Source: Nemertoderma westbladi (lineage: Eukaryota; Animalia; Xenacoelomorpha). Taken from it: a stretch of 64,000 nt of DNA. Both the position numbers and the translations under genes were made by a program. Positions within the stretch are counted from its first letter, which is position 1. Each line of letters starts with the position of its first letter. The stretch is from positions 14,318 to 78,317 of the forward strand of contig JAUCBJ010008014.1 in the NCBI GenBank assembly GCA_032718475.1. Direction: 5' to 3'. Below, piece by piece: positions 29,901-64,000 of the stretch. The notes under the pieces are model-generated. The model saw only the letters and a program-made list of their open reading frames with translations. It searched no databases and had not been told where the DNA came from.

Positions 29901-32900
29901 TACTATTGTCTATTTATTTTAGATTACTATCGTTCGAACGTAGCTTTGTTCTACTATTGTCTGTTTATTTTAGATTACTATCGTTTGAACGTAGCTTTGT
30001 TCTACTATTGTCTGTTTATTTTAGATTACTATCGTTTGAACGTAGCTTTGTTCTACTATTGTCTGTTTATTTTAGATTACTATCGTTTGAACGTAGCTTT
30101 GTTCTACTATTGTCTGTTTATTTTAGATTACTATCGTTTGAACGTAGCTTTGTTCTACTATTGTCTGTTTATTTTAGATTACTATCGTTTGAACGTAGCT
30201 TTGTTCTACTATTGTCTGTTTATTTTAGATTACTATCGTTTGAACGTAGCTTTGTTCTACTATTGTCTGTTTATTTTAGATTACTATCGTATGAACGTAG
30301 CTTTGTTCTACTATTGTCTATTTATTTTAGATTACTATCGTTTGAACGTAGCTTTGTTCTACTATTGTCTGTTTATTTTAGATTACTATCGTTTGAACGT
30401 AGCTTTGTTCTACTATTGTCTATTTATTTTAGATTACTATCGTTTGAACGTAGCTTTGTTCTACTATTGTCTATTTATTTTAGATTACTATCGTTTGAAC
30501 GTAGCTTTGTTCTACTATTGTCTGTTTATTTTAGATTACTATCGTTTGAACGTAGCTTTGTTCTACTATTGTCTGTTTATTTTAGAATACTATCGTTTGA
30601 ACGTAGCTTTGTTCTACTATTGTCTGTTTATTTTAGATTACTATCGTTTGAACGTAGCTTTGTTCTACTATTGTCTATTTATTTTAGATTACTATCGTTT
30701 GAACGTAGCTTTGTTCTACTATTGTCTGTTTATTTTAGATTACTATCGTTTGAACGTAGCTTTGTTCTACTATTGTCTGTTTATTTTAGATTACTATCGT
30801 TTGAACGTAGCTTTGTTCTACTATTGTCTGTTTATTTTAGATTACTATCGTTTGAACGTAGCTTTGTTCTCATCAATCTTTGCTTTGCGTTGTTTGTTGC
30901 GATTCTGCTGTTCCTAATTGGAGTGGAAGGTCACGGGTTTCTAAATGTTAGTAGACATGTCTCTATATAACATTCTGGTTGTACTTCTGTAACAGTTCTA
31001 CTTTATTCCTTACAGGATTCTGGTTGTACTTCTTTAACAGTTCTACTTTATTCCTTACAGGATTCTGGTTGTACTTCTTTAACAGTTCTACTTTATTCCT
31101 TACAGGATTCTGGTTGTACTTCTTTAACAGTTCTACTTTATTCCTTACAGGATTCTGGTTGCCCTTCTGTAACAGTTCTACTTTATTCCTTACACAGGAT
31201 TCTGGTTGTACTGCTGTAACAGTTCTACTTTATTCCTTACAGGATTCTGGTTGTACTGCTGTAGCAGTTCTACTTTATTCCTTACAGGATTCTGGTTGCC
31301 CTTATGTAACAGTTCTACTTTATTCCTTACACAGGATTCTGGTTGTACTGCTGTAACAGTTCTACTTTATTCCTTACAGGATTCTGGTTGTACTTCTGTA
31401 ACAGTTCTACTTTATTCCTTACAGGATTCTGGTTGTACTTCTTTAACAGTTCTACTTTATTCCTTACAGGATTCTGGTTGCCCTTCTGTAACAGTTCTAC
31501 TTTATTCCTTACACAGGATTCTGGTTGTACTGCTGTAACAGTTCTACTTTATTCCTTACAGGATTCTGGTTGTACTGCTGTAGCAGTTCTACTTTATTCC
31601 TTACAGGATTCTGGTTGCCCTTATGTAACAGTTCTACTTTATTCCTTACACAGGATTCTGGTTGTACTGCTGTAACAGTCCTACTTTATTCCTTACAGGA
31701 TTCTGGTTGCCCTTCTGTAACAATTCTACTCTATTCCTTACAGGATTCTGGTTGCCCTTCTGTAACAGTTCTACTTTATTCCTTACACAGGATTCTGGTT
31801 GCACTGCTGTAACAGTTCTACTTTATTCCTTACAGGATTCTGGTTGCCCTTCTGTAACAGTTCTACTTTATTCCTTACAGGATTCTGGTTGTACTTCTGT
31901 AACAGTTCTACTTTATTCCTTACACAGGATTCTGGTTGCACTGCTGTAACAGTTCTACTTTATTCCTTACAGGATTCTTGTTGTACTGCTGTAACAGTTC
32001 TACTTTATTCCTTACAGGATTCTGGTTGTACTGCTGTAACAGTTCTACTTTATTCCTTACAGGATTCTGGTTGTACTTCTGTAACAGTTCTACTTTATTC
32101 CTTACAGGATTCTGGTTGCCCTTCTGTAATAGTTCTACTTTATTCCTTACAGGATTCTGGTTGCCCTTCTGTAACAGTTCTACTTTATTCCTTACAGGAT
32201 TCTGGTTGTACTTCTGTAACAGTTCTACTTTATTCCTTACAGGATTCTGGTTGCCCTTCTGTAACAGTTCTACTTTATTCCTTACACAGGATTCTGGTTG
32301 CACTGCTGTAACAGTTCTACTTTATTCCTTACAGGATTCTGGTTGCACTGCTGTAACAGTTCTACTTTATTCCTTACAGGATTCTGGTTGTACTGCTGTA
32401 ACAGTTCTACTTTATTCCTTACAGGATTCTGGTTGTACTTCTGTAACAGTTCTACTTTATTCCTTACAGGATTCTGGTTGCCCTTATGTAACAGTTCTAC
32501 TTTATTCCTTACACAGGATTCTGGTTGTACTGCTGTAACAGTCCTACTTTATTCCTTACAGGATTCTGGTTGCCCTTCTGTAACAATTCTACTCTATTCC
32601 TTACAGGATTCTGGTTGCCCTTCTGTAACAGTTCTACTTTATTCCTTACAGGATTCTGGTTGCCCTTCTGTAACAGTTCTACTTTATTCCTTACACAGGA
32701 TTCTGGTTGTACTGCTGTAACAGTTCTACTTTAATCCTTACAGGATTCTGGTTGTACTTCTGTTGCAGTTCTACTTTATTCCTTACAGGATTCTTGTTGT
32801 ACTTCTGTAACAGTTCTACTTTATTCCTTACAGGATTCTGGTTGCCCTTCTGTAACAGTTCTACTTTATTCCTTACAGGATTCTGGTTGCCCTTCTGTAA

Positions 32901-35900
32901 CAATTCTACTCTATTCCTTACAGGATTCTGGTTGCCCTTCTGTAACAGTTCTACTTTATTCCTTACACAGGATTCTGGTTGTACTGCTGTAACAGTTCTA
33001 CTTTAATCCTTACAGGATTCTGGTTGTACTTCTGTAACAGTTCTACTTTATTCCTTACAGGATTCTGGTTGCCCTTCTGTAACAGTTCTACTTTATTCCT
33101 TACACAGGATTCTGGTTGTACTGCTGTAACAGTTCTACTTTAATCCTTACAGGATTCTGGTTGTACTTCTGTTGCAGTTCTACTTTATTCCTTACAGGAT
33201 TCTGGTTGTACTGCTGTAACAGTCCTACTTTATTCCTTACAGGATTCTGGTTGCCCTTCTGTAACAATTATACTCTATTCCTTACAGGATTCTGGTTGCC
33301 CTTCTGTAACAGTTCTACTTTATTCCTTACAGGATTCTGGTTGCCCTTCTGTAACAGTTCTACTTTATTCCTTACAGGATTCTGGTTGCCCTTCTGTAAC
33401 AGTTCTACTCTATTCCTTACAGGATTCTGGTTGCCCTTCTGTAACAGTTCTACTTTATTCCTTACAGGATTCTGGTTGCCCTTCTGTAACAGTTCTACTT
33501 TATTCCTTACAGGATTCTGGTTGCCCTTCTGTAACAGTTCTACTCTATTCCTTACAGGATTCTGGTTGCCCTTCTGTAACAGTTCTACTTTATTCCTTAC
33601 ACAGGATTCTGGTTGCCCTTCTGTAACAGTTCTACTTTATTCCTTACAGGATTCTGGTTGCCCTTCTCTAACAGTTCTACTTTATTCCTTACAGGATTCT
33701 GGTTGCCCTTCTGTAACAGTTCTACTTTATTCCTTACAGGATTCTGGTTGCCCTTCTGTAACAGTTCTACTTTATTCCTTACAGGATTCTGGTTGCCCTT
33801 CTGTAACAGTTCTACTCTATTCCTTACAGGATTCTGGTTGCCCTTCTGTAACAGTTCTACTCTATTCCTTACAGGATTCTGGTTGCCCTTCTGTAACAGT
33901 TCTACTTTATTCCTTACACAGGATTCTGGTTGCCCTTCTGTAACAGTTCTACTTTATTCCTTACAGGATTCTGGTTGCCCTTCTCTAACAGTTCTACTTT
34001 ATTCCTTACAGGATTCTGGTTGCCCTTCTGTAACAGTTCTACTTTATTCCTTACAGGATTCTGGTTGCCCTTCTGTAACAGTTCTACTTTATTCCTTACA
34101 GGATTCTGGTTGCCCTTCTGTAACAGTTCTACTCTATTCCTTACAGGATTCTGGTTGCCCTTCTGTAACAGTTCTACTTTATTCCTTACAGGATTCTGGT
34201 TGCCCTTCTGTAACAGTTATACTTTATTCCTTACAGGATTCTGGTTGCCCTTCTGTAACAGTTCTACTTTATTCCTTACAGGATTCTGGTTGCCCTTCTG
34301 TAACAGTTCTACTTTATTCCTTGCAGGATTCTGGTTGCCCTTCTCTAACAGTTCTACTTTATTCCTTACAGGATTCTGGTTGCACTGCTGTAGCAGTTCT
34401 ACTTTATTCCTTACAGGATTCTGGTTGCCCTTCTGTAACAGTTCTACTTTATTCCTTACAGGATTCTGGTTGCCCTTCTGTAACAATTCTACTCTATTCC
34501 TTACAGGATTCTGGTTGCCCTTCTGTAACAGTTCTACTTTATTCCTTATAGGATTCTGGTTGCCCTTCTGTAACAGTTCTACTTTATTCCTTACAGGATT
34601 CTGGTTGCCCTTCTGTAACAGTTCTACTTTATTCCTTACAGGATTCTGGTTGCCCTTCTGTAACAGTTCTACTGTATTCCTTACAGGATTCTAGTTGCCC
34701 TTCTGTAACAGTTATACTTTATTCCTTACAGGATTCTGGTTGCCCTTCTGTGACAGTTCTACTTTATTCCTTACAGGATTCTGGTTGTACTGCTGTTACA
34801 GTTCTACTTTATTCCTTACAGGATTCTGGTTGCACTGCTGTAACAGTTCTACTTTATTCCTTACAGTATTCTGGTTGTACTGCTGTAACAGTTCTACTTT
34901 ATTCCTTACAGGATTCTGGTTGCCCTTCTGTAACAGTTATACTTTATTCCTTACAGGATTCTGGTTGCCCTTCTGTAACAGTTCTACTTTATTCCTTACA
35001 GGATTCTGGTTGCCCTTCTGTAACAGTTCTACTTTATTCCTTACAGGATTCTGGTTGCCCTTCTGTAACAGTTATACTTTATTCCTTACAGGATTCTGGT
35101 TGCCCTTCTGTAACAGTTCTACTTTATTCCTTACAGGATTCTGGTTGCCCTTCTGTAACAGTTCTACTTTATTCCTTGCAGGATTCTGGTTGCCCTTCTC
35201 TAACAGTTCTACTTTATTCCTTACAGGATTCTGGTTGCACTGCTGTAGCAGTTCTACTTTATTCCTTACAGGATTCTGGTTGCCCTTCTGTAACAGTTCT
35301 ACTTTATTCCTTACAGGATTCTGGTTGCCCTTCTGTAACAGTTCTACTTTATTCCTTACAGGATTCTGGTTGCACTTCTGTAGCAGTTCTACTTTATTCC
35401 TTACAGGATTCTGGTTGCCCTTCTGTAACAATTCTATTTTATTCCTTACAGGATTCTGGTTGCCCTTCTGTAACAGTTCTACTTTATTCCTTACAGGATT
35501 CTGGTTGCCCTTCTGTAACAGTTCTACTTTATTCCTTACAGGATTCTGGTTGTACTGCTGTAACAGTTCTACTTTATTCCTTACAGTATTCTGGTTGCAC
35601 TGCTGTAACAGTTCTAATTTATTCCTTACATGATTCTGGTTGTACTGCTGTAGCAGTTCTACTTTATTCCTTACGGGATTCTGGTTGTACTGCTGTAACA
35701 GTTCTAATTTATTCCTTACAGGATTCTGGTTGCCCTTCTGTAACAGTTCTACTGTATTCCTTACAGGATTCTGGTTGCCCTTCTCTAACAGTTCTACTTT
35801 ATTCCTTACAGGATTCTGGTTGTACTGCTGTAGCAGTTCTACTTTATTCCTTACGGGATTCTGGTTGTACTGCTGTAACAGTTCTACTTTATTCCTTGCA

Positions 35901-38900
35901 GGATTCTGGTTGCCCTTCTCTAACAGTTCTACTTTATTCCTTACAGGATTCTGGTTGCACTGCTGTAGCAGTTCTACTTTATTCCTTACAGGATTCTGGT
36001 TGCCCTTCTGTAACAGTTCTACTTTATTCCTTACATGATTCTGGTTGCCCTGCTGTAACAGTTCTACTTTATTCCTCACAGGATTCTGGTTGCCCTTCTG
36101 TAACAGTTCTACTTTATTCCTTACAGGATTCTGGTTGCCCTTCTGTAACAGTTCTACTTTATTCCTTACAGGATTCTGGTTGCACTTCTGTAGCAGTTCT
36201 ACTTTATTCCTTACAGGATTCTGGTTGCCCTTCTGTAACAATTCTATTTTATTCCTTACAGGATTCTGGTTGCCCTTCTGTAACAGTTCTACTTTATTCC
36301 TTACAGGATTCTGGTTGCCCTTCTGTAACAGTTCTACTTTATTCCTTACAGTATTCTGGTTGCACTGCTGTAACAGTTCTAATTTATTCCTTACATGATT
36401 CTGGTTGTACTGCTGTAGCAGTTCTACTTTATTCCTTACAGGATTCTGGTTGCCCTTCTGTAACAGTTATACTTTATTCCTTACAGGATTCTGGTTGCCC
36501 TTCTGTAACAGTTCTACTTTATTCCTCACAGGATTCTGGTTGCCCTTCTGTAACAGTTCTACTTTATTCCTCACAGGATTCTGGTTGCCCTTCTGTAACA
36601 GTTCTACTTTATTCCTTACAGGATTCTGGTTGCACTTCTGTAGCAGTTCTACTTTATTCCTTACAGGATTCTGGTTGTACTTCTACTTTATTCCTTACAG
36701 GATTCTGGTTGCCCTTCTGTAACAGTTCTACTTTATTCCTTACAGGATTCTGGTTGCCCTTCTGTAACAATTCTATTTTATTCCTTACAGGATTCTGGTT
36801 GCCCTTCTGTAACAGTTCTACTTTATTCCTTACAGGATTCTGGTTGCCCTTCTGTAACAGTTCTACTTTATTCCTTACAGTATTCTGGTTGCACTGCTGT
36901 AACAGTTCTAATTTATTCCTTACATGATTCTGGTTGTACTGCTGTAGCAGTTCTACTTTATTCCTTACAGGATTCTGGTTGTACTGCTGTAACAATTCTA
37001 TTTTATTCCTTACAGGATTCTGGTTGCCCTTCTGTAACAGTTCTACTTTATTCCATACAGGTTTCTGGTTGCCCTTCTGTAACAGTTCTACTTTATTCCT
37101 TACAGGATTCTGGTTGCCCTTCTGTAACAGTTCTAATTTATTCCTTACAGGATTCTGGTTGTACTTCTGTAGCAGTTCTACTTTATTCCTTACAGGATTC
37201 TGGTTGTACTGCTGTAGCAGTTATACTTTATTCCTTACAGGATTCTGGTTGCCCTTCTGTAACAGTTCTACTTTATTCCTTACAGGATTCTGGTTGCCCT
37301 TCTGTAACAGTTCTACTTTATTCCTTACAGGATTCTGGTTGTACTGCTGTAACAGTTCTACTTTATTCCTTACAGGATTCTGGTTGCCCTTCTGTAGCAG
37401 TTCTACTTTATTCCTTACAGGATTCTGGTTGCCCTTCTGTAACAGTTCTACTTTATTCCTTACAGGATTCTGGTTGCACTGCTGTAACGGTTCTACTTTA
37501 TTCCTTACAGGATTCTGGGTGCCCTTCTGTAACAGTTCTACTTTATTCCTTACAGGATTCTGGTTGCACTGCTGTAGCAGTTCTACTTTATTCCTTACAG
37601 GATTCTGGTTGTACTGCTGTAACAGTTCTACTTTATTCCTCACAGGATTCTGGTTGCCCTTCTGTAACAGTTCTACTTTATTCCTCACAGGATTCTGGTT
37701 GCCCTTCTGTAACAGTTCTACTTTATTCCTTACAGGATTCTGGTTGTACTGCTGTAGCAGTTATACTTTATTCCTTACAGGATTCTGGTTGCCCTTCTGT
37801 AACAGTTCTACTTTATTCCTTACAGGATTCTGGTTGTACTGCTGTAGCAGTTATACTTTATTCCTTACAGGATTCTGGTTGCCCTTCTGTAACAGTTCTA
37901 CTTTATTCCTTACAGGATTCTGGTTGCCCTTCTGTAACAGTTCTACTTTATTCCTTACAGGATTCTGGTTGTACTGCTGTAACAGTTCTACTTTATTCCT
38001 TACAGGATTCTGGTTGCCCTTCTGTAGCAGTTCTACTTTATTCCTTACAGGATTCTGGTTGCCCTTCTGTAACAGTTCTACTTTATTCCTTACAGGATTC
38101 TGGTTGCACTGCTGTAACGGTTCTACTTTATTCCTTACAGGATTCTGGGTGCCCTTCTGTAACAGTTCTACTTTATTCCTTACAGGATTCTGGTTGCACT
38201 GCTGTAGCAGTTCTACTTTATTCCTTACAGGATTCTGGTTGTACTGCTGTAACAGTTCTACTTTATTCCTCACAGGATTCTGGTTGCCCTTCTGTAACAG
38301 TTCTACTTTATTCCTCACAGGATTCTGGTTGCCCTTCTGTAACAGTTCTACTTTATTCCTTACAGGATTCTGGTTGCCCTTCTGTAACAGTTCTAGTTTA
38401 TTCCTTACAGGATTCTGGTTGCCCTTCTGTAACAGTTCTACTTTATTCCTTACAGGATTCTGGTTGTACTGCTGTAACAGTTCTACTTTATTCCTTACAG
38501 GATTCTGGTTGCCCTTCTGTAACAGTTCTACTTTATTCCTTACAGGATTCTGGTTGCCCTTCTGTAACAGTTCTACTGTATTCCTTACAGGATTCTGGTT
38601 GCCCTTCTGTGACAGTTCTACTTTATTCCTTACAGGATTCTGGTTGTACTTCTGTAACAGTTATATTTTATTCCTTACAGGATTCTGGTTGTACTGCTGT
38701 AACAGTTCTACTTTATTCCTTACATGATTCTGGTTGTACTGCTGTAACAGTTCTACTTTATTCCTTACAGGATTCTGGTTGCCCTTCTGTAACAGTTCTA
38801 CTTTATTCCTTACAGGATTCTGGTTGTACTGCTGTAACAGTTCTACTTTATTCCTCACAGGATTCTGGTTGCCCTTCTGTAACAGTTCTAGTTTATTCCT

Positions 38901-41900
38901 TACAGGATTCTGGTTGCCCTTCTGTAACAATTATATTTTATTCCTTACAGGATTCTTGTTGTACTTCTGTAGCAGTTCTACTTTATTCCTTACAGGATTC
39001 TGGTTGCCCTTCTGTAACAGTTCTACTTTATTCCTTACAGGATTCTGGTTGCACTTCTGTAGCAGTTCTACTTTATTCCTTACAGGATTCTGGTTGCCCT
39101 TCTGTAACAATTCTATTTTATTCCTTACAGGATTCTGGTTGCCCTTCTGTAACAGTTCTACTTTATTCCTTACAGGATTCTGGTTGCCCTTCTGTAACAG
39201 TTCTACTTTATTCCTTACAGGATTCTGGTTGTACTGCTGTAACAGTTCTACTTTATTCCTTACAGGATTCTGGTTGCCCTTCTGTAACAGTTCTACTTTA
39301 TTCCTTACAGGATTCTGGTTGCCCTTCTGTAACAGTTCTACTTTATTCTTTACAGGATTCTGGTTGCACTGCTGTAGCAGTCCTTCTACATTATTTCTTC
39401 CTCTCCGTGTTCACTTGGATGTTGAACGAAGGAATTCTCTATTATCTCAACGTAGTCGTTATATTTGAACGGGAGGTTTCCTGGAAATGGATTTATTTAG
39501 GTATCGGTTGGGGTGCGCCGTTATTGGTAGTTGGTATTTCGGCTGGTGCCAGCCAACTCAATGGATACTCGTACGAACGGCCAGGGGGAGATGTTATGTA
39601 AGTATTTATCTTTGGGATATAATAAAGTATTATTTTAATATTTGTTTAACTAAAATAGATATGCCGACTATGTTTATTTTAGTTTATTTTCTACTTTATA
39701 TACCTCAACAGTAGGTTCAGTTTAGTTTATTTTCTACTTTATATACCTCAACATTAGGTTTAGTTTATTTTATACTTTATATACCTCAACATTAGGTTTA
39801 GTTTAGTTTATTTTATACTTTATATACCTCATCAGTAGGTTTAGTTTAGTTTATTTTCTACTTTATATACCTCAACAGTAGGTTTAGTTTAGTTTATTTT
39901 CTACTTTATATACCTCAACATTAGGTTTAGTTTAGTTTATTTTCTACTTTATATACCGCAACATTAGGTTTAGTTTAGTTAATTTTTACTTTATATACCT
40001 CAACAGTAGGTTTAGTTTAGTTTATGTTCTACTTTATATAGCTCAACATTAGGTTTAGTTTATTTTCTACTTTATATACCTCAACATTAGGTTTAGTTTA
40101 GTTTATTTTCTACTTTATATACCGCAACATTAGGTTTAGTTTAGTTAATTTTTACTTTATATACCTCAACAGTAGGTTTAGTTTAGTTTATGTTCTACTT
40201 TATATAGCTCAACATTAGGTTTAGTTTAGTTTATTTTCTACTTTATATACATCAACAGTAGGTTTAGTTTAGTTTATTTTCTACTTTATATACCTCAACA
40301 TTAGGTTTAGTTTAGTTTATTTTCTACTTTATATACCTCAACATTAGGTTTAGTTTAGTTTATTTTCTACTTTATATACCTCAACATTAGGTTTAGTTTA
40401 GTTTATTTTCTACTTTATATACCTCAACAGTAGGTTCAGTTTAGTTTATTTTCTACTTTATATACCTCAACATTAGGTTTAGTTTATTTTATACTTTATA
40501 TACCTCAACATTAGGTTTAGTTTAGTTTATTTTCTACTTTATATACCTCAACAGTAGGTTTAGTTTAGTTTATTTTCTACTTTATATACCTCAACATTAG
40601 GTTTAGTTTAGTTTATTTTCTACTTTATATACCTCAACATTAGGTTTAGTTTAGTTTATTTTCTACTTTATATACCTCAACAGTAGGTTCAGTTTAGTTT
40701 ATTTTCTACTTTATATACCTCAACATTAGGTTTAGTTTAGTTTATTTTCTACTTTATATACCTCAACATTAGGTTTAGTTTAGTTTATTTTCTACTTTAT
40801 ATACCTCAACAGTAGGTTCAGTTTAGTTTATTTTCTACTTTATATACCTCAACATTAGGTTTAGTTTAGTTTATTTTCTACTTTATATACCTCAACAGTA
40901 GGTTCAGTTTAGTTTATTTTCTACTTTATATACCTCAACATTAGGTTTAGTTTATTTTATACTTTATATACCTCAACATTAGGTTTAGTTTAGTTTATTT
41001 TCTACTTTATATACCTCAACAGTAGGTTTAGTTTAGTTTATTTTCTACTTTATATACCTCAACATTAGGTTTAGTTTAGTTTATTTTCTATTTTATATAC
41101 CTCAACAGTAGGTTCAGTTTAGTTTATTTTCTACTTTATAACCTCAACATTAGGTTTAGTTTAGTTTATTTTCTACTTTATATACCTCAACATTAGGTTT
41201 AGTTTTGTTTATTTTCTACTTTATATACCTCAACAGTAGGTTTAGTTTAGTTCATTTTCTACTTTATATACCTCAACAGTAGGTTTAGTTTAGTTTATTT
41301 TCTACTTTATATACCTCAACAGTAGGTTTAGTTTATTTTCTACTTTATATACCTCAACATTAGGTTTAGTTTAGTTTATTTTCTACTTTATATACCTCAA
41401 CATTAGGTTTAGTTTAGTTTATTTTCTACTTTATATACCTCAACATTAGGTTTAGTTTAGTTTATTTTCTACTTTATATACCTCAACAGTAGGTTTAGTT
41501 TAGTTTATTTTCTACTTTATATACCTCAACATTAGGTTTAGTTTAGTTTATTTTCTACTTTATATACCTCAACAGTAGGTTTAGTTTAGTTTATTTTCTA
41601 CTTTATATACCTCAACAGTTAAGAAAAAATTTAGTGTATTGTATACTTTATGTAACTCGACAGTTGGTTTTATTTAGTGTTTTGTATACTTTATGATTCC
41701 TTTCCAGATGCTGGTTAGATCCTTCCGTTGGTGTTTTGTATGCCTTCATAGGCCCCGCAGTAGCTATAGCCGTGGCTAACATGGTGGTTATTGTTATTGT
41801 ACTCAGAACGATGTTTAAAAGCTCGGCTTTTAATAAAAAATCGGAGATAGAACAGATCAAGTGAGTTACATTGAACAGATCAAGTGAGTTACATTGAATT

Positions 41901-44900: not shown

Positions 44901-47900
44901 TTATTGTCGGACAGACTAACTCGACTATTCTCGAACTAACACACGTCACCAACTCGACTATTCTCGAACTAACTCACGTCACCAACTCGACTATTCTCGA
45001 ACTAACTCACGTCACTAACTCGACTATTCTCGACCTAACTCACGTCACTAACTCGACTATTCTCGATCTAACTCACGTCACTAACTCGAATATTGTTCAA
45101 TAAACTACAATTAGTTAACTATTTTCTTAAACAATAATTTACTATGTTCTCTTTTTGTATTTCAGGGAGTTTTTATATTTATTTTTCATTGTCTCATGGC
45201 GAAACCTGTGCGAGACGCGTTGCGGAGGAAAGGATACTTAGCGAAAGGGATTAGAGGACCTCGATCTGGTACAAGTAGTGCGGTAAGTAATAGAAAGGAT
45301 TAGAAGCAACAGATCTGGTACAAGCGGTGCGGTAAGTAATAGAAAGGATTAGAGGCAACAGATCTGGTACAAGCAGTGCGGTAAGTAATAGAAAGGATTA
45401 GAGGCAACAGATCTGGTACAAGCAGTGCGGTAAGTAATAGAAAGGATTAGAGGCAACAGATCTGGTACAAGCAGTGCGGTAAGTAATAGAAAGGATTAGA
45501 GGCAACAGATCTGGTACAAGCAGTGCGGTAAGTAATAGAAAGGATTAGAGGCAACAGATCTGGTACAAGTAGTGCGGTAAGTAATAGAAAGGATTAGAAG
45601 CAACAGATCTGGTACAAGCGGTGCGGTAAGTAATAGAAAGGATTAGAGGCAACAGATCTGGTACAAGCAGTGCGGTAAGTAATAGAAAGGATTAGAGGCA
45701 ACAGATCTGGTACAAGCAGTGCGGTGAGTAATAGAGAGGATTAGAGGCAACAGATCTGGTACAAGCAGTGCGGTAAGTAATAGAAAGGATTAGATGCAAC
45801 AGATCTGGTACAAGCAGTGCGGTAAGTAATAGAAAGGATTAGAGGCAACAGATCTGGTACAAGCGGTGCGGTAAGTAATAGAAAGGATTAGAGGCAACAG
45901 ATCAGTGCGGTAAGTAATAGAAAGGATTAGAGGCAACAGATCTGGTACAAGCAGTGCGGTAACTAATAGAAAGGATTAGAGGCAACAGATCTGGTACAAG
46001 CAGTGCGGTAAGTAATAGAAAGGATTAGAGGCAACAGATCTGGTACAAGCAGTGCGGTAAGTAATAGAAAGGATTAGAGGCCCTCGATCTGGTACAAGTA
46101 GTGCGGTAAGTAATAGAAAGGATTAGAGGCAACAGATCTGGTACGAGCAGTGCGGTAAGTAATAGAAAGGATTAGAGGCAACAGATCTGGTACAAGCAGT
46201 GCGGTAAGTAATAGAGAGGATTAGATGCAACAGATCTGGTGCAAGCAGTGTGGTAAGTAATAGAAAGGATTAGAGGCTACAGATCTGGTACAAGCAGTGC
46301 GGTAAGTAATAGAAAGGATTAGAGGCAACAGATCTGGTACAAGCAGTGCGGTAAGTAATAGAAAGGATTAGAGGCAACAGATCTGGTACAAGCAGTGCGG
46401 TAAGTAATAGAAAGGATTAGAGGCAACAGATCTGGTACAAGTAGTGCAGTAAGTAATAGAAAGGATTAGAGGCAACAGATCTGGTACAAGTAGTGCAGTA
46501 AGTAATAGAAAGGATTAGAGGCAACAGATCTGGTACAAGCAGTGCGGTAAGTAATAGAAAGGATTAGAGGCAACAGATCTGGTACAAGCAGTGCGGTAAG
46601 TAATAGAAAGGATTAGAGGCAACAGATCTGGTACAAACAGGGCGGTAAGTAATAGAAAGGATTAGAGGCAACAGATCTGGTACAAGCAGTGCTGTAAGCT
46701 GATTAGAAATATGGAACAAATTATAATTTTGAATGGGAGAGTCTTTAATGCTCATCAATCCAACGAATACCTGTTCGCATCATAAACAGAAAGGAGACAC
46801 AGCAAGACTCGCCTCAGTCTGCTGGAATCAATTACTGGGCTGATTTACATGCTAATAAACTCCTCCCTGCTTACTGTATAGTTGTCACATAGGAGTAGGC
46901 CAGAACCAAAGTTCGGCTAACAGATACACTTTGCTGTGTGACAATACCGCATGGCAGCTTTGTGAGAGCGCAATGGTGACCTATTACATAGGGTTTGGGT
47001 TACAGCGCTCCGAAAACACGGAGGGCGCTGTTAAAGAGAAGTCAAAACGTGACGAAAATCCGCCGTGCTGTCACTGCGAATGTAAATATGTGAACCGGGA
47101 TTAAGATAAAAGTTTATTTCATTAGATTTTTTAAATGTTTTTAATTTAATTAAAGTTTAATTGATTCGAATAGGCCGATCCCCCGACGTTGTCTACCACG
47201 GCTCGGAAGAGTTCGGCATTCCCGTCGTCTTCATCCAATCCCGATTCGATGACGAAGAAATACAGTAAAAGTAATTGGTCCAATCACAAGATCGAGTTGA
47301 ATACGAGATCCCCGACTCCTCCAATGAACGCTGCCGGTGATTCGAACTCAATCAAGCCGTTGATAGAGATCCAACCAGCTGTTATCGCAACCACTGGGGT
47401 CAAACAGCAGTTAGATATTGACGAATTAGCTGATAGTTCAGGTAGAAATAAACATGATCTACTACTGGAAACAACTAATACTTAATTGTTTACTTTTTGT
47501 GTTTTGTTAGTAAATTTGTAGTTGCTTAACATTAATCTTTAAGATTTATTACTAATTGGTTTTGTTGAAAACGGCTTAGCGAAAGTCGCCAGTTTTTATT
47601 TGGAGGTTTTTTTGAGACGTTTTTTCTTCTTTTTTTCAGACGGGTAAACTGACCCAAATAACGTCCCACATATTACCTGAGCCAATTAATACCGATTGAA
47701 TATTAACATTTATCTCTTCAAAATAAAAAGTTTGTGGAACAAAATACAATTTCAAACTGTTAAATATCGAAGTTACGATTTCTTCTGGAATCCATTTTTT
47801 TCATACAGATAACGTTATGTCATTCAATTATTTTTACTCCGTTTTTATTGAACGTTTTTTTGGGACAGTTTCTTGTCTGAAAAAAGTGGAAAATCGATCC

Positions 47901-50900
47901 GTTATTGTTTGAGTTATAAAATGTTACATCGTATTTTTTTTTGTTAATATTTTAATTATAATTTATTCGTTAAACTAATTTTGACGTAATTATTTATACA
48001 ACTTAATGCCGGTATATATAATATTAACTATATAATATGCAATCAGTTCAAAACATCTCGTTTTATTATGTTACTCCATTGTATTATAGCAGTTCCCGTT
48101 ACTCACAATAAACCTTGCTGAACGTTTTAGGTAAATCTTTCTCATTTCGTGGTCCGGATAAATATAATATAAATTGTGCATTAACAGCTCGAAGTGCCTT
48201 CGCGAGGCACGTGAAATAAATTAATGTTAATTGTCAACTCGAAAAAGTTATAAGCAAAATATAAGCAGATTTCTCCTAATCACTTTTACTCCCTAGCGGC
48301 AGACTGAGTAACTGCAGACGGTTTAATAAAACCTCAGTCTGAGCTCAGTTGAGGGGCGGAACAAATATCAGCTGATATAAAGGTAAAGGTAAAAGGTGTA
48401 CGGACAAATTTAAATGCGTACGGTCAATTCCGACCGGGGCAATTCCGACCCACACAATTCCGAATTACAAATATAAAACTGTATCTTTCGTTTATTGTTT
48501 TGGTTAGAATTACGTGTCTACACTGAAAAAACACAACCGCGGTTCTAAATTAAACCAACGGTTGTACATTTTAACTTGTGGTTATAAATTGTGAACCAGT
48601 GGTTATTTTTAAAAACCGTGGTTTGAAAATAGAAGAAATGATATGATTTTTAAACCGCCGGTTTTCGATTAAAAACCGGGGGTTATAAAATACTGTCACT
48701 CGAAATTAAATGTGCAGTCGGAGTATGGATTTAAACCGCTGGTTTTCTAAACACAAACCGGAGGTTATAAAATACTGTCATTCGAAATTAAGTATAATAG
48801 TATTAAGTCTATATAGAACGCCATGATGTCATACCACATTCCCCTCGAGCCAGTATTTTGAAAATTCAATATCCCGCCACCTCAGCCATGCCATAATGAC
48901 CAGCTTGTGTGCATACCAGCATAGCGCAGTAGGACAGCAGCACAGTCCTTATTGTTCTGCTGTACAGGCCGCAGGTCGGGCCTACACAGTACTGCAGTAC
49001 CAATTGCGTTTCCGGTTTGTGTTTAGCCAGTGCTGCGCGGCAGTACAGCAGTAGGCCTAACTGGTCTGGCATGGTACTAGTAGGTTAGGTCTATATTTAT
49101 TATTGAGGCGTTTTTTGTGTTTTTGGAACCACCATTCCGTTGCCATGTTTGTTAACCCATTTTGACAGAATGCTGTACCTGTACGCGGTACCGGTACTGT
49201 AAATGTCATACCTTAACTGTTATTACTATCGCATACCGGTATGCTCCTAGGGTGGAGTGAAAAAAACTCTTTTTTTCAAATGAAGTTGGAAATGAAGAAA
49301 GTACGTGAAACGGAAAATATGGAAACAAACCTTCTTGAGAAAGCGGTCAGTTTGGGCGAGGAGGGTGCCACTACCACTACTAAGAAACGAAATATAACGA
49401 CAAATAAAAACACAAATAAACGCGCCCGACACCATGCCTTTGTTATAGACGAAGCTGTCAGGCTGTCGAAGTTCTCGAAAGTGACGAAAGTGAGGAGATG
49501 TCCGGTGATGAGGGTGAATCATCTGGAATTGATACCGGTAGTTTAATCGAAGCGAAAAAAGTAGGAGAATGTGTGTGGGCCAAACTATCCAAGAAGGATA
49601 TATTTTGGCCCAGCAAAGTGTGCGAACCCTATGGTAAACCGAGAAGCATTCATCGTCCCCACTGGGTATATTTTTTCGGAACCCATAATTATGGTTGGGT
49701 CAGCAGTGGCCTCATAATAGCGTATGAAGCAGACAATAACCCCGACAAAGAGCGGAAGAATAAGGGGAAGAAGTTTGAGCAAGGAGTACTGGAACTGGAA
49801 TTGGAGAGGGTTGGGCCACAGGAGTCATAGGGTATCGCCTATGTAAATGTTTATACCTGTTATGTTTACCTGATAATATAATTAATGATATTATTAATTA
49901 GTTGAATATTGAGAATGGAGACGCTTGAATAAGAATTAATAATATGCTGAATTATATAAACTTTTATTATCTGATTTGGGGGTGGGGGGGGGGGGGGGGT
50001 TAATAAACCACGGTTACCTTCGGAAAACCACTGGTAATATTGTGAATAAACCACGGTTATAATTGGAGAATCGGCGTTTGTGTTTTAAGAAATCACGGTT
50101 ATTTTTAGAAAACGGCCGTCGGTTACGGTGAATAAACCGCGGTTTTTTTTTTGACAACCCTTAATTTATAACCCTGGTTATTTATATGAAAAAACCGCCG
50201 GTTCCCCGAAAAAACCCCGGTTAAAATGCAACAAAAACCACCGGCGGTTTTTTCGGGAAACTGGCGGTTTTTTAAGGTAAAACAGGGGTTATGTTTTTTC
50301 AGTGTATGTAACGTGGTTCTTTCCCGTAATTGGTAATTAACATTGATATTTCGACGAGACGAGATATAATAAATACAAAAACAATCTGTTTCGCATCGAT
50401 TTGAAAACACATCCAAACACGGTCGCATTAAATAAACTATCACGGGTATGTAAATCACTGGGAATCAAGCAGCCATTTACTACATCGTTTCTGGGTCAAG
50501 CAACCAACCCCCACCTACAACAGGTAGGTAGCATGGGTGCATCACTGGTGGTGGGAGTGGGAGAGATCAAAAATCATAGAAACAATGTTATCAAATGAAA
50601 ATGGTGTTTCGTATTTGTGTTTCGTTTCTGTTTTGTTTTATTTCGTATTTGTGCGGATGTTAGTTGCGGGGCGGGTGGGGTATGGTGTTGCCTTCCTTGT
50701 TGTGTTTCTTATTTTTGTCGGTCTACCAGAAAACCGGTTGAATACAATATGCATAAAGTACCACTTCGCTAAGACTCTATCTGTATGTCCACTTTCTTTA
50801 AAATAGAGAGTAACTACTGTTGTAACCCACCAACACTTGCAGTGATTAAATCTCCCAGAACTACCACTTTTTTTAACACCTGCATCACTGGGTATGATAA

Positions 50901-52774
50901 GTTCTAATCAGAAAACTTTAGATGAAGTTGTCATGATTTCATAATTTGAATATTTACTGGTGGATAAATATTTATCTTCAAATTTCCATATTTATAACAA
51001 AGCTAGGGTATTTTTTAATTGCCCATCTAATGTGGTAGCCATGGAAACACGTATTGCGAGCGTTCTAGAATTATTGCTGTTTCACGCCTGCTTTTAGTTC
51101 CACCTTTCGCACTCTCCGCCTTAATATTCATGCAATCTGCGTCTCTAGTCTCACCCCTTCCTTAAATCTCCTCACTTTTACGATAAATATCGTAATCCTC
51201 ACTGTTCGGCTACAGTAGAGAGTAAACTAAAGTTATCAACGGATGTGACAGGAGAGGGAGGAAGTGTTCCTTATCTGGGGCTCGAACTCACGGCATTCCG
51301 ATTGGAAGACAGGCGCTCTAACCAACATGGCAACTTGTACAGTAGGATTACTACATTAAGGTCTTATTTACTGAATTGTTTTTTCTATTGTTTTTGGCGA
51401 TTTGAAACATTTAGTTTAATTATAAATATATTGTAAATGTTTGATACTAAATTTAAAGACTAACTGAGCATTTAGGGTTCGGGCTTAATGGTAGGCCTCC
51501 TCATAGCTTAACTGCCATTTTCTATTTAAACTAACTTATCTTGAATAATTTTCGCTAAATTATTATCATTATATGGACTTCACTGAAACAATAAACGGTG
51601 TTACACTGTCTAATAGAATCCGCATCTAAACTCGAAAAACTACTCTGCCGTCGTTATATTCCCCACGGTGTTTGTATTCTTGGAAAACAATTAATCTTTT
51701 AGATGAGTTACTAAGAGCCCACCGAAAGAATTCGAAATCTGGCGATAAAGTTATCGATATAGAAATCATTGAGCCAATTAAAGTAGAAGAACCTCGGAGA
51801 AATCACTCGGATAGGGTTGTGGAAAATATAGATGATTCTGTATTCGGTATGTCGCGTGACCTACCTGTATGTAGGCCAACATTACTGAACCGATATTAGG
51901 TGAACACAGTAATAGGTGTAGGAAGTTAACCTACAAATTGACCCTGGAATTAGTGTAAGATACTATTATTTGGTTGGTTGGTTAGTTGTACATACATATA
52001 TTGTGGTAGAAACAACATTTATACAGTCTGCGATATTGTGTACACTAAACAGATTGTTATTTTTGTATTGTCTTGTTATTTTCAGTTGCTGAGCAACAAC
52101 CACCGTCACAAATTCCCGAGAACATAGTTATTCCCGTGTCTGAGAATCCGGTATTGAAAGAAACTGAGAAACAAAACGTTGAACCATCCCGAGAAGTGGA
52201 CCAAGCAAGTCAATCTGTCGACCAATCAGATGTGGATGACAAGCCTCTAGTCTCTGATAACCAATCAGAGAACGGACCACAACCTAGTGTATCTGATAAC
52301 CAATCAGAGAACGGACCGCAACCTAGTGTATCTGACAACCAATCAGAGAACGGACCACAACCTAGTGTATCTGATAACCAATCAGAGAACGGACCGCAAC
52401 CTAGTGTATCTGACAACCAATCAGAGAACGGACCACAACCTAGTGTATCTGATAACCAATCAGAGAACGGACCACAACCTAGTGTATCTGATAACCAATC
52501 AGAGAACGGACCACAACCTAGTGTATCTGATAACCAATCAGAGAACGGACAACCGCCGAGAATGTCTTCAGACCAATCAGATACACGACACTCACCAACA
52601 CCGCCTGTGACTGATCATACTGAACCAACAGTGCAGTCAGCAGACGAAGTAGCCAAACCTTCGCAGAAACCGCCTGCAGACTATATGAGATCGGATAGCG
52701 TCGGAGGCGAATTGCGTCGGAAATTAGCTCCGATTCGGAAGTACGTCGATGGCTTTATTGTTGATAATAAATGA
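12857..52774 (+). CDS. Adhesion GPCR (GAIN/GPS + secretin-family 7TM; ADGRD1/GPR133-like), 5'-partial, multi-exon
   Basis: Phase-consistent AG/GT exon chain: 12857-13041, 13608-13714, 21305-21462, 25772-25878, 30841-30946, 39356-39597, 41708-41860, 43602-43728, 45166-45282, 47174-47441, 51703-51846, 52086-52774. Motifs: HLTNFAVLM, CTAVAVLLHYFFLSVFTWMLNEG, IGWGAP, CWL, QGVFIFIFHC. Confidence 0.92.
13608..13714 (+). CDS. aGPCR exon, GAIN subdomain B
   Basis: tttag|(S)NETVATKVISLTIDPPPNTPLEDPISYRLELLTPK|gtaagt; typical VIS..L..PI GAIN pattern. Confidence 0.85.
14310..21230. repeat. 62-bp minisatellite, about 111 apparently identical copies
   Basis: Unit gacctcccgaccactcccaccgttgaactgatgtatcctattggtagtggccgatatattcg; no variants seen by eye. 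Confidence 0.98.
21305..21462 (+). CDS. aGPCR exon, GPS motif and Stachel
   Basis: ttttag|(E)SDQTPMCVYWDPSNSSWSPKGLQLLSNTTELVDCQSDHLTNFAVLMVPVAYE|gtaagt. Confidence 0.95.
21986..22771 (-). CDS. Intronless permuted NlpC/P60 (LRAT/PLAAT- or PPPDE-like) protein with two C-terminal TM segments, nested antisense in an aGPCR intron
   Basis: 261-aa ORF; THWALII (catalytic His strand) lies N-terminal to YRLINRNCQEWV (NC nucleophile motif); two hydrophobic stretches near the C-terminus. Confidence 0.8.
   Translation of the reverse strand: MANAEVETQIVVEKLSDQMQIKSFYITGKVLDATIKSTRSSRPSKPADQLNAQLMKEPTPLTHWALIIYCHDSKEVIRAELGKSGFRIKAFWNELGQGTDKIPDDAIKIVEIKVTLDQVRDAVMNNDVNGRLYRLINRNCQEWVMEVATCLGFAEAVENAGVTTIGTKLTPKQRTVLTIMVIIFIIHLMSSVGFIIGSVYDTTNNYLFPMGIGTMSVSGVGMIIICMGTFFNIYSKNRDRNISKERLAKNRIKENYNTIDV
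23734..24385 (-). mobile_element. 3' fragment of a CR1/L2-group LINE
   Basis: FTTPLFNLSSSQRSLSFRGPVIWNSVPLDIRSKKSKNKFSSALK resembles a CR1/L2 ORF2 C-terminus; followed by a 3'UTR and an (AAT)-rich tail at about 23734-23775. Confidence 0.65.
24481..25196 (+). mobile_element. 5'-truncated RTE-clade LINE (RT C-terminus)
   Basis: LEHVDDFCYLGSWI...KAWAALNRLSRIWKS...KVRLFRAAVVPVLLYGSPCWALT...RLRFAGHC...RELWR; (TAG)n tail; gtggtccataaac flanks both sides. Confidence 0.92.
25239..25360 (+). repeat. Dispersed repeat also found at about 59750-59862 (minus) and partly at about 11735-11830
   Basis: Shared agggaaaggagcaggttacagtggca...aatcagctgttatttgcgtc sequence. Confidence 0.7.
25473..25578. repeat. 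29-bp tandem repeat, about 3.5 copies
   Basis: Unit aaaagtaaatcctatgaaagtagatccgg. Confidence 0.85.
25772..25878 (+). CDS. aGPCR exon, TM1
   Basis: ttttacag|LSNPHEFILRVLGLIGGSLSLIGLVLTIITYLLVW(R)|gtttgt; phase 0 in, phase 2 out. Confidence 0.92.
26279..30870 (+). repeat. 51-bp array of splice acceptor + TM2 exon start, about 90 copies
   Basis: Unit actattgtctgtttattttag|ATTACTATCGTTTGAACGTAGCTTTGTTCT; the last unit runs directly into exon 30841. Confidence 0.97.
30841..30946 (+). CDS. aGPCR exon, ICL1/TM2
   Basis: (R)LLSFERSFVLINLCFALFVAILLFLIGVEGHGFLN|gttagt. Confidence 0.92.
30973..39381 (+). repeat. 45-bp array of splice acceptor + TM3 exon start, about 185 copies
   Basis: Unit gttctactttattccttacag|GATTCTGGTTGCCCTTCTGTAACA with 47-bp variants; the last unit is the start of exon 39356. 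Confidence 0.97.
39356..39597 (+). CDS. aGPCR exon, TM3-TM4
   Basis: DSGCTAVAVLLHYFFLSVFTWMLNEGILYYLNVVVIFEREVSWKWIYLGIGWGAPLLVVGISAGASQLNGYSYERPGGDV|gtaagt. Confidence 0.96.
39676..41619 (+). repeat. 43-bp minisatellite, about 45 copies, with a pyrimidine tract and TAG|GT
   Basis: Unit gtttagtttagtttattttctactttatatacctcaaca(g/t)tag. Confidence 0.95.
41708..41860 (+). CDS. aGPCR exon, ECL2/TM5
   Basis: tttccag|(I)CWLDPSVGVLYAFIGPAVAIAVANMVVIVIVLRTMFKSSAFNKKSEIEQI(K)|gtgagt. Confidence 0.95.
41846..42842 (+). repeat. 40-bp array of TM5 exon end + splice donor (23-bp variants), about 25 copies
   Basis: Unit GATAGAACAGATCAA|gtgagttacattgaattatctcctg; the first unit begins inside the exon. 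Confidence 0.96.
43289..43458 (+). mobile_element. TIR-bounded element enclosing a tRNA-like (A/B-box) sequence
   Basis: About 37-bp inverted repeats attaagtaattaaacaggactaaggatgaaccaactc around tccgtggtgtaggtgttagca...gcgggttcgatccccgc. Confidence 0.75.
43602..43728 (+). CDS. aGPCR exon, TM6-TM7 start
   Basis: tgtag|(K)GGVWSLCVIVPVFGVSWVIGVFAVTEEAVVLQYLFNILISTQ|gttagt. Confidence 0.95.
43846..44329. mobile_element. About 480-bp palindromic foldback with an outward-facing tRNA-like module in each arm
   Basis: Arms about 43846-44070 and 44110-44329 are near reverse complements; each contains gagccgttagctgaatggtta...gttcgatcccacctggacgtca. Confidence 0.85.
44916..45090. repeat. 33-bp tandem repeat, about 5 copies
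   Basis: Unit actaactcgactattctcgaactaactcacgtc. Confidence 0.85.
45166..45282 (+). CDS. aGPCR exon, TM7/helix 8
   Basis: tttcag|GVFIFIFHCLMAKPVRDALRRKGYLAKGIRGPRSGTSSA|gtaagt. Confidence 0.95.
45248..46700 (+). repeat. 49-bp array of TM7 exon end + splice donor, about 30 copies
   Basis: Unit GGATTAGAGGCAACAGATCTGGTACAAGCAGTGCG|gtaagtaatagaaa; the first unit is the true exon end. Confidence 0.96.
47174..47441 (+). CDS. aGPCR C-tail exon
   Basis: aatag|ADPPTLSTTARKSSAF...IDELADSS then CAG|gtagaa (phase 1); alternatively it reads through to a stop at 47485. Confidence 0.7.
48521..50304. mobile_element. Non-autonomous CACTA/CMC-like DNA transposon
   Basis: TIRs cactgaaaaaacacaacc and ggttatgttttttcagtg, TA on both flanks, many aaaccgcggtt-like subterminal repeats at both ends; no transposase seen. 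Confidence 0.8.
49498..49830 (+). CDS. PWWP-domain protein (HDGF/LEDGF-like) inside the transposon
   Basis: VGECVWAKLSKKDIFWPSKV...WVYFFGTHNYGWV...IIAY...KGKKFEQGVLEL fits the PWWP pattern. Confidence 0.75.
   Translation: MSGDEGESSGIDTGSLIEAKKVGECVWAKLSKKDIFWPSKVCEPYGKPRSIHRPHWVYFFGTHNYGWVSSGLIIAYEADNNPDKERKNKGKKFEQGVLELELERVGPQES
51192..51351 (-). mobile_element. tRNA-like sequence within short inverted repeats
   Basis: Minus strand ttggttagagcgcctg...gtgagttcgagcccc; flanked by gtaatcctcactgt and acagtaggattac. Confidence 0.55.
51703..51846 (+). CDS. Probable aGPCR C-tail exon
   Basis: ttttag|(D)ELLRAHRKNSKSGDKVIDIEIIEPIKVEEPRRNHSDRVVENIDDSVF|gtatgt; phase 1 at both ends. Confidence 0.6.
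52086..52774 (+). CDS. Probable terminal aGPCR exon with a 13-aa (39-bp) coding repeat
   Basis: ttttcag| phase 1; (PSVSDNQSENGPQ) about 8 times at about 52245-52555; possible extra donor gtacgt at 52741. Confidence 0.6.
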
Positions 52775-59720: not shown

Positions 59721-59957
59721 GAGACAGGGGGGGGGGGGGGGGGGGGACTCGACGCAAATAACAGCTAATTACTCTCAAAAATAAAACTGTAACCTGTTCT
59801 ATTGTGTTTAGTTTATTGTTTTGGTTAAAATAACGTGCCACTGTAACCTGCTCCTTTCCCTAATTTTAGAAGTTAACATTGAGGCGGGATATTAATTCGC
59901 CAAGTTGGGATTAGTGTCCAGTTTCCCCCCCCCCCCCCCCCCCCCCCCCCCTGTCTC
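59721..59957. mobile_element. Element with GAGACAG-polyG / polyC-CTGTCTC termini, flanked by 18-bp direct repeats
   Basis: acattgatacacaataag at 59703-59720 and 59958-59975. Confidence 0.75.
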
Positions 59958-62842: not shown

Positions 62843-63518
62843 ACTAGGATCGGCATGCTGCATTGCAGCTGCATTTTTAAGAATGCTGTGCCGGCTTTTC
62901 GACAAAATTGCACCGCCACAACTCCCTATCACCCATGACATTTGCTAGATCATCCGCATCTTCAAGGCCAGTGTCTTTTAAGATGCGTCTTAAGAAAGTC
63001 ATGGGCTGTCCACCATATGCTTATTCACCCCATGAGGCTGCCAAAGTACAAGATTATGCACTGGCTGGTCCTCACGGCGAAAGCAATGTCTTGCAAAGCG
63101 GAGGCGATTTTGTTCTAGTGTCAAGCTTTGGGGAACCAATGAGACACCTCCAATGTTATATAGTGTCTGGTTGGAGATGTGTGCAATGTACTTGACACAA
63201 TAAACCCGGCGTAGCATTCTTGTGAATGTGCCATCCAGAGACTTGGTGTCCTCAGCAGTTAGAGCCCAGCATGGACTCCCATAGAGGAGTACTGGAACTA
63301 CTGCTGCTCTAAATAATCGGACCTTAAGTTTCCGATTAATTCTCGGTGACTTCCAAATCATAGAAAGCCTATTTAAGGCTGCCCATGCCTTTCCCTTACG
63401 TATTCGAAGGTCCTCATCTGACTTCCGGACCCATGATCCCAGGTAACAGAAGTCATCCACATGCTCAAGCATACCATCTTTTGAGCTTATGCTCATCCGA
63501 TCAGAGAGTTGCTGAGGA
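62843..63518 (-). mobile_element. RTE LINE 3' segment (RT C-terminus)
   Basis: PQQLSDRMSISSKDGMLEHVDDFCYLGSWV...; highly similar to 24519-25190, with a frameshift near 63015. Confidence 0.92.
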
Positions 63519-64000
63519 AATACAGGAGCTCTATACAAGACTGTAATGCATTTACACTTCGACCCTTCTCCAGTGATCACCGCCTTATTGTGGCCAAGGT
63601 AAGACTTAGTCTGCGTGCTAGCAGAACAACGAAATCTGCCTTGCCACGGCATGACTGGTCCTCTCTGTTGCAACAGCCAAGTGTGAGATCCAGCTTCACA
63701 CTACAGCTGAGCAACAGGTATGAGGCTCTTGCCTCTGAGGCGGCAGATCACTGTGAGGGCTATACTGCCTTTACAGAAGCAGTTAAGTTAGCAGCTGCAG
63801 AAACAGTTCCTGTATACCCTCGAAACAGGAAAAGGGCCCCCTGGACTGACAACAAAATTCAGAAGTGCCGAAATGACCTTCATAAGGCGCAGAAAGAGTC
63901 CCGACTCAAACAGACTACAGCGGCCAAGAATGCAGTTAAAGCTGCATCTAGGTCCCTGAACAGGCAGTACTCTGTTAATCTACAGGAGCTAATAAATCAA
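63518..64000 (+). mobile_element. Inverted 5' segment of the RTE (end of APE endonuclease + linker), open to the window end
   Basis: Stop-free frame KYRSSIQDCNAFTLRPFSSDHRLIVAKVRLSL...FTLQLSNRYEAL...RKRAPWTD; SDH is the APE C-terminal motif. Confidence 0.8.

Follow-up and report, generated by a model that had tools for sequence, protein, structure and literature searches.

The DNA analysed here, called the window, is a stretch of 64,000 nt from Nemertoderma westbladi (GCA_032718475.1, contig JAUCBJ010008014.1, positions 14,318-78,317 of the forward strand), in which a DNA transposon lies within an intron of a secretin-family GPCR gene. The window was compared with contigs from four runs, X1 to X4, which represent at most three samples and three studies, X1 and X4 being one sample; the X4 contigs lack 48566-48992, and those of X3 lack both 48566-48992 and 50030-50322. 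The insertion is made up of the following features:

47442-51702, plus strand: host intron, GT..AG, 4,261 nt, containing the element, in the GPCR gene on the same strand (X3 joint)
48206-48520, no strand: another dispersed repeat, the copy that received the element (many contigs here; paralogous piece at 59807-59837)
48519-48520, no strand: left TA target-site duplication (sequence and X2 empty-site joint)
48521-50304: whole element, 1,784 bp, beginning CACTG and finishing CAGTG, with TA on either side
48521-48554, plus strand: left terminal inverted repeat (TIR), CACTG end (arm comparison)
48535-48791, no strand: left subterminal region with an array of palindromic AACC..GGTT motifs; CpG observed/expected 1.68
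50002-50286, no strand: repeat array of the right subterminal region; CpG observed/expected 1.73
50271-50304, minus strand: right TIR, CAGTG end (arm comparison)
50305-50306, no strand: right TA target-site duplication (sequence; contigs with different right flanks match through TA too)

The first-pass annotation had described this copy as intronic, which is borne out by an X3 contig that joins across the intron 47442-51702 and by the two flanking exons (47174-47441 and 51703-51848), which join in frame and stop-free over 138 codons. A 7tm_2 match (E = 2.4e-14) is found in the upstream exon 39389-39595, which we infer to be part of the gene holding the element, and past exon 51703-51848 lies an open frame with a coding 39-bp tandem repeat (52253-52550, 7.6 copies), probably the final exon of the GPCR gene.

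The surroundings are rich in other repeats. For the dispersed repeat at 48206-48520 and 59770-59870, each of the four runs has numerous divergent contigs, and very long tandem arrays are found at 14311-21230, 26280-30870, 30972-39381, 39672-41694 and 45243-46698, several of them in introns of the GPCR gene; the 62-bp array has 111.6 copies with an identity of 100%, possibly an effect of consensus building in the assembly. Elsewhere in the window, the minus strand holds an open frame of 263 codons with hydrophobic C-terminal segments (21986-22777; DUF6540, E = 0.0086, under the cutoff), and two similar open frames with DUF6451 matches below the cutoff (24439-25158 on the plus strand and 62999-63700 on the minus strand) are presumably 3' fragments of an RTE-type non-LTR retrotransposon.

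The description of the element as a 1.8-kb TIR transposon with subterminal repeats, TA flanks and no transposase held in each of these points. The two arms agree at 28 of the 34 terminal bases, a level at which random flank stretches of equal length (n = 100,000) never arrived, none exceeding 20, and with the TA counted in (48519-48554 against 50271-50306) the agreement is 83% over 36 nt. The motif AAACC-N2-3-GG occurs 18 times in the 1,784 nt of the element, whereas 15,516 nt of flank contain it 3 times; the subterminal palindromes are likely to be transposase binding sites.

The site without the element is also represented among the contigs: one from X2 joins 48518 to 50305, with two letters that fit either side and a single TA left, and one from X1 bridges both flanks with a one-letter difference. 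As two bases also occupy the target position in the paralogous repeat copy elsewhere in the window, the TA on either side of the element is a duplication of the target.

Among the listed loose ends, all five contigs at the right end (two from X1, two from X2 and one from X4) and all three at the left end (X1, X4 and X3) match through the TA and then diverge, and the target duplication is TA at every flank listed; on these loose ends, the element belongs to a family and is not a single accident. With regard to further copies and an autonomous partner, for which a TIR search had been proposed at the outset, the contigs supply other insertion flanks; the 17 loci found by a TIR pattern scan were dismissed as chance, given that none had blastn similarity, a PWWP match or a fitting right end. 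No second copy is present within the 64-kb window. The summed contig depth over the PWWP-coding part (described below) is 47 in X1, 54 in X2, 25 in X3 and 76 in X4, depth being no copy number; it is close to the depth of the flanks and far under that of the flanking repeat, and our guess is that the element is low copy.

With regard to its class, the element carries subterminal repeat arrays, which are typical of CACTA elements. The Tc1/mariner group, which a TA duplication would suggest, was set aside, as Tc1 ends run reverse to CACTG..CAGTG. A profile scan of the five open reading frames (ORFs) of the element returned no transposase domain, so that the class has to be read from the ends: these have 5'-CA..TG-3' termini inside the TIRs and a TA duplication, and the CMCT clade (EnSpm/CACTA, ESTA) is characterised by CA..TG ends and duplications of 2-5 bp, TA for ESTA (Kojima 2025, PMC12730594). 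The element is therefore described as a non-autonomous DNA transposon with a TA duplication and a likely place in the CMCT (EnSpm/ESTA-like) clade, a placement drawn from the ends alone.

The closest known arrangements differ in what they carry. ESTA (EnSpm-like, CMCT) shares both the CA..TG ends and the TA duplication with the element here, but its description is from fungi and its definition is by the transposase (PMC12730594), the main text of which source has no mention of PWWP; the hallmark of the CMCT clade is a DDE transposase bearing the motifs C(2)C and H(3-4)H. The zebrafish EnSpm-N49/N49B elements, which are non-autonomous CMC-EnSpm, are similar in having CACT(C/G)AAAAAA ends (CACTCAAAAAAATGA in EnSpm-N49B) and a 2-bp duplication, a size of about 2 kb, no transposase and an insertion within a gene; they differ in the duplicated bases, CA in place of TA, and, as far as their description in that source goes, in the PWWP-coding DNA that the element here carries (PMC13189230).

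The coding part of the element is composed of the following features, all on the plus strand:

49002-49954: stretch to which an X3 contig is identical, with a 22-A tail at 49954; the 5' limit is the end of the contig
49241-49546: upstream ORF, 101 codons, with a junction-derived start, the shared linker and an out-of-frame tail past 49454
49247-49294: junction zone, in which about 43 nt with a different continuation elsewhere (loose end behind 49289) are followed by a join before 49295
49295-49830: coding segment common to a longer sibling, a Lys/Thr-rich and then acidic linker, the PWWP and the stop
49368-49373: 6 nt, in frame, missing in the X1, X2 and X4 contigs (contig comparison)
49454-49461: frame-shifting 8-nt insertion, a 6-nt duplication plus 2 nt, absent from X1, X2 and X4 and present in X3
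49564-49794: PWWP domain with the motif IFWP; cage Trp and Phe retained, first cage aromatic absent

The frame 49420-49830 matches the PWWP profile PF00855 with E = 5.9e-13 and 49.6 bits against a curated cutoff of 25.6, and is the only one of the five ORFs scanned to do so, and an AlphaFold2 model (20-row alignment, pLDDT 85) has the five strands and C-terminal helices of the beta-barrel fold. The profile check that had been suggested for the domain was thereby passed. The ORF had been called intact-looking as well, and here only the domain stood: the 8-nt insertion at 49454 severs the PWWP frame from the codons before it. For the Lys-rich ORF at 49241-49546, a joining to the PWWP frame by frameshift or splicing had been considered, which does not hold, since the interruption is a mutation of this copy.

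Read from 49295, the frame is open over 173 codons, up to the PWWP stop, when the indels of X1, X2 and X4 are applied, and in the window version it stops at codon 84. Given that the contigs of X1, X2 and X4 are without the 8-nt insertion, the two ORFs are one broken ORF; a programmed frameshift or splicing was rejected both for this reason and because the X3 contig is unspliced, and an assembly error as the source of the 8 nt was rejected because X3 holds the identical 8 nt. Contigs drop rare variants, and the 8 nt need not be shared by every short copy. Both of the other indels observed between 49295 and the stop preserve the frame, namely the 6 nt mentioned above and a 9-nt deletion in X4, which also has 49503 C>T; with n = 2, they are too few to show selection. 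In an X1 contig, an 8-nt insertion behind 48811 creates a 14-nt palindrome. The 8-nt insertions at 48811 and 49454 resemble what we take to be hairpin-type excision footprints of an 8-bp-duplicating transposon.

The sequence upstream of this segment points to a longer form. In X1, X2 and X4 the match ends at 49295 and a different sequence lies upstream, for example in X4 record 24, where 346 nt of other sequence are joined to 49295-49484 without the 6 and the 8 nt; the 30 loose letters listed upstream of 49295 are stop-free in the PWWP frame, a weak indication of 10 codons that were read by eye. Towards the right, the X4 contigs tile 49295-50306 (with one 1-nt gap, at 49608) up to the right TIR, the TA and a different flank, a tiling that does not amount to a single molecule. 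Given this linkage in X4, the open frame and the tiling, the PWWP forms the C-terminal part of an ORF that extends further upstream, in a longer CACTG element whose right end it occupies.

The left TIR also continues into different sequence in X1, X2 and X4, with a loose end behind 48556. Together with the one behind 49289, it suggests a mosaic make-up of the short form, which a simple deletion from the longer one would not give. Relatives of the longer form did not appear in the searches made for them: protein searches gave no candidate at near lengths and none of 70 at greater lengths, and a linker query gave none of 12 among longer proteins, all of which are weak negatives; scans of metagenome (0 of 191) and viral (0 of 8) records were equally empty, and the X3 contigs have none of the long form within the X3 coverage.

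The PWWP itself is a distant member of its group. A search of 1.84 billion representatives returned 27 matches of 30-46% identity, the best at 43.6 bits, which by Pfam comprise 9 of GLYR1 type, 8 labelled NSD-type and 10 others, and a transposase domain is absent from all 27. The element PWWP is C-terminal, the GLYR1-type matches are N-terminal and the NSD-type matches follow PHD fingers. Foldseek ranks HRP3 (E = 1.7e-5), NSD3 (2.1e-5) and PSIP1 (2.4e-5) nearly equal, NSD3 ranks above HDGF among the PDB sequence matches, and in the ESM Atlas the PWWP clusters reach 0.88-0.91 and the unnamed clusters at most 0.82. A 28-row tree without any row labelled HDGF gives the element PWWP no supported placement. 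The earlier label of an HDGF/LEDGF-type domain does not single out one group, given that GLYR1-type and NSD-type domains score equally well.

The columns that are invariant among 19 relatives (V, W, W, P, F and W) are all retained in the element, together with the fold, but the best identity in the tree is 41% and the end branch measures 1.28 against a median of 0.6, so that the domain is long diverged yet conserved. Compared with the PWWPs of LEDGF/PSIP1, the HDGF family, GLYR1 and NSD, it has the same fold, the cage Trp and Phe and, to judge from the aligned lysines, probably the basic patches, but it differs in the missing first cage aromatic, in a one-residue loop insertion, and in being C-terminal and transposon-borne where the others are host-encoded.

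These observations bear on the possibility that the PWWP is passive Pack-TIR cargo, i.e., an exon and 3' UTR taken from a host chromatin gene and without a role in transposition, which we regard as unlikely, if worth keeping in view. Pack-TIRs are known from animals, where transcription of them is common (PMC8277862), and cargo of this kind would fit the mosaic-like short form with its junction at 49289/49295, the fact that the form seen with a poly(A) tail is the broken one, and the failure to find a transposase. It accords poorly with the open-frame longer form, the sole other form observed, which tiles to the CACTG right end and the TA, so that the apparent parent itself sits at a transposon end, with the want of any close host-like relative among the 1.84 billion representatives, and with a C-terminal position and long branch unlike those of GLYR1, HDGF and NSD.

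Since the longer CACTG form has the PWWP at its right end and keeps the frame open, a transposon-encoded protein is favoured over a recently captured host scrap. Of the two origins first proposed, a captured host fragment or an accessory protein, it is thus the side of a transposon-encoded product that gains, and the recent host capture that loses ground. A further idea is that the long form is a domesticated, fixed host gene derived from a transposon, of which the short derivatives alone are still mobile. This would agree with the open frame kept in both samples that show the long form and with the left flank shared by X1 and X4, as of one locus, but X1 and X4 are one sample, neither the terminal repeats nor the TA flanks are damaged, there is more than one right flank, and the extra X4 variants (the 9-nt deletion and 49503 C>T) suggest more than one copy or allele; we consider it improbable.

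The transcript evidence concerns the broken form. X3 is read as RNA, given its spliced host joint and an A tail, and the polyadenylated form comes from one contig of one study; this contig crosses the two-ORF region unspliced and gap-free and carries the 8 nt, and the genome past 49954 has no A run (7 A in 20 nt). The poly(A) site at 49954 is on the strand of the host gene and inside its intron, where it could, as a prediction, provoke the early ending of host GPCR transcripts.

Within 49002-49497, nine ATGs precede 49498, which is the sole in-frame ATG of the polyadenylated stretch, and the window copy therefore probably makes no PWWP protein; to judge from the sequence, such a product is unlikely. 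A stand-alone PWWP protein of 110 aa that starts at the ATG at 49498 and serves as an accessory or competitor would have in its favour the polyadenylation of a contig identical to the window copy and an in-frame ATG with a purine at -3, but these nine upstream ATGs, the 101-codon ORF that overlaps the ATG out of frame and the unspliced state of the polyadenylated contig make it very improbable indeed.

What a PWWP of this kind might bind can be considered from its cage. In HDGF2/PSIP1 the cage is made up of Y18, W21 and F44 (PMC3119473, PMC3663649), and in PSIP1 the change Y18A strongly lowers the specificity for H3K36me3 and affects the affinity less (PMC3663649). The element PWWP has the equivalents of W and F, i.e., two of the three aromatics of an H3K36me3-reading PWWP of the PSIP1/HDGF2 type; the Y18 position is occupied by Asp or Lys, depending on the gap, and this first aromatic, missing here, is Tyr or Phe in 22 of the 27 matches. 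Lysines are present in both regions aligned to the PSIP1 basic patches (K14/K16 and K70-K75), and the net charge is +3 over 97 aa. With two of the three aromatics of the cage kept, and the basic patches probably so, general nucleosome or DNA binding would be the likelier activity of the domain than the specific reading of H3K36me3.

The steering of insertions to H3K36me3 gene bodies is weakened by the same substitution, as the Y18 equivalent is Asp or Lys and PSIP1 Y18A loses much of its specificity. One intronic insertion site says nothing about targeting, and the stronger proposal, that an animal CMCT transposase with its own C-terminal PWWP would dock the transpososome on gene-body nucleosomes of transcribed genes and so produce intron insertions, is a prediction that we hold to be doubtful.

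The reading that we prefer, and think fairly probable, is that the protein of the long element, a transposase or its partner, ends in the linker and a chromatin-holding PWWP, and that the window copy is a non-autonomous passenger which has lost the product. According to this reading, the gene of the longer sibling would end in the diverged PWWP and would code for the transposase or a partner protein; the window copy would carry the frameshifted 3' end of that gene, and the short form would be moved by transposase supplied in trans, which would bind the subterminal palindromes. The PWWP may contact chromatin chiefly via its basic surfaces, with a weak or no preference for H3K36me3. The combined observations suggest that the family probably supplies a tether to chromatin of its own making, although one residue of the usual methyl-histone pocket is absent from the domain.

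Reader-carrying transposons are already known, mainly with Chromo and PHD domains. A survey of 172 genomes names fusions with Chromo, PHD, SNF2_N, SET and Bromo, and its hAT-Chromo reader fusions in sponge link a reader to a mobile element, as here; PWWP fusions are not named in the survey text, and its Supplementary Table 6, with 823 candidates, may list some (Grau-Bove et al., bioRxiv 10.1101/2021.11.30.470311). Plant Spm TnpA comes from a CACTA-clade element with CpG-rich subterminal motifs and is a possible chromatin-acting product, like that proposed here, but it has tandem HTH motifs and is reported to be restricted to flowering plants, and PWWP has no mention in the main text of that source (bioRxiv 10.64898/2026.08.24.746577). 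No natural PWWP-bearing DNA transposon was found in print, in a search that ran mostly over titles and abstract openings, with Repbase and Dfam outside it.

The tethering of integration by a PWWP is known from the host factor LEDGF. Should the PWWP prove to be passive cargo, the element would be one more Pack-TIR, of modest interest. If a DNA transposon does encode its own PWWP, the family would provide a natural test of a cut-and-paste element that sets its own target chromatin, for which the short and long forms, with their broken and open frames, offer a ready comparison, and a PWWP borne by the transposase itself would do from within what lentiviruses achieve with LEDGF, a tether taken from the host.
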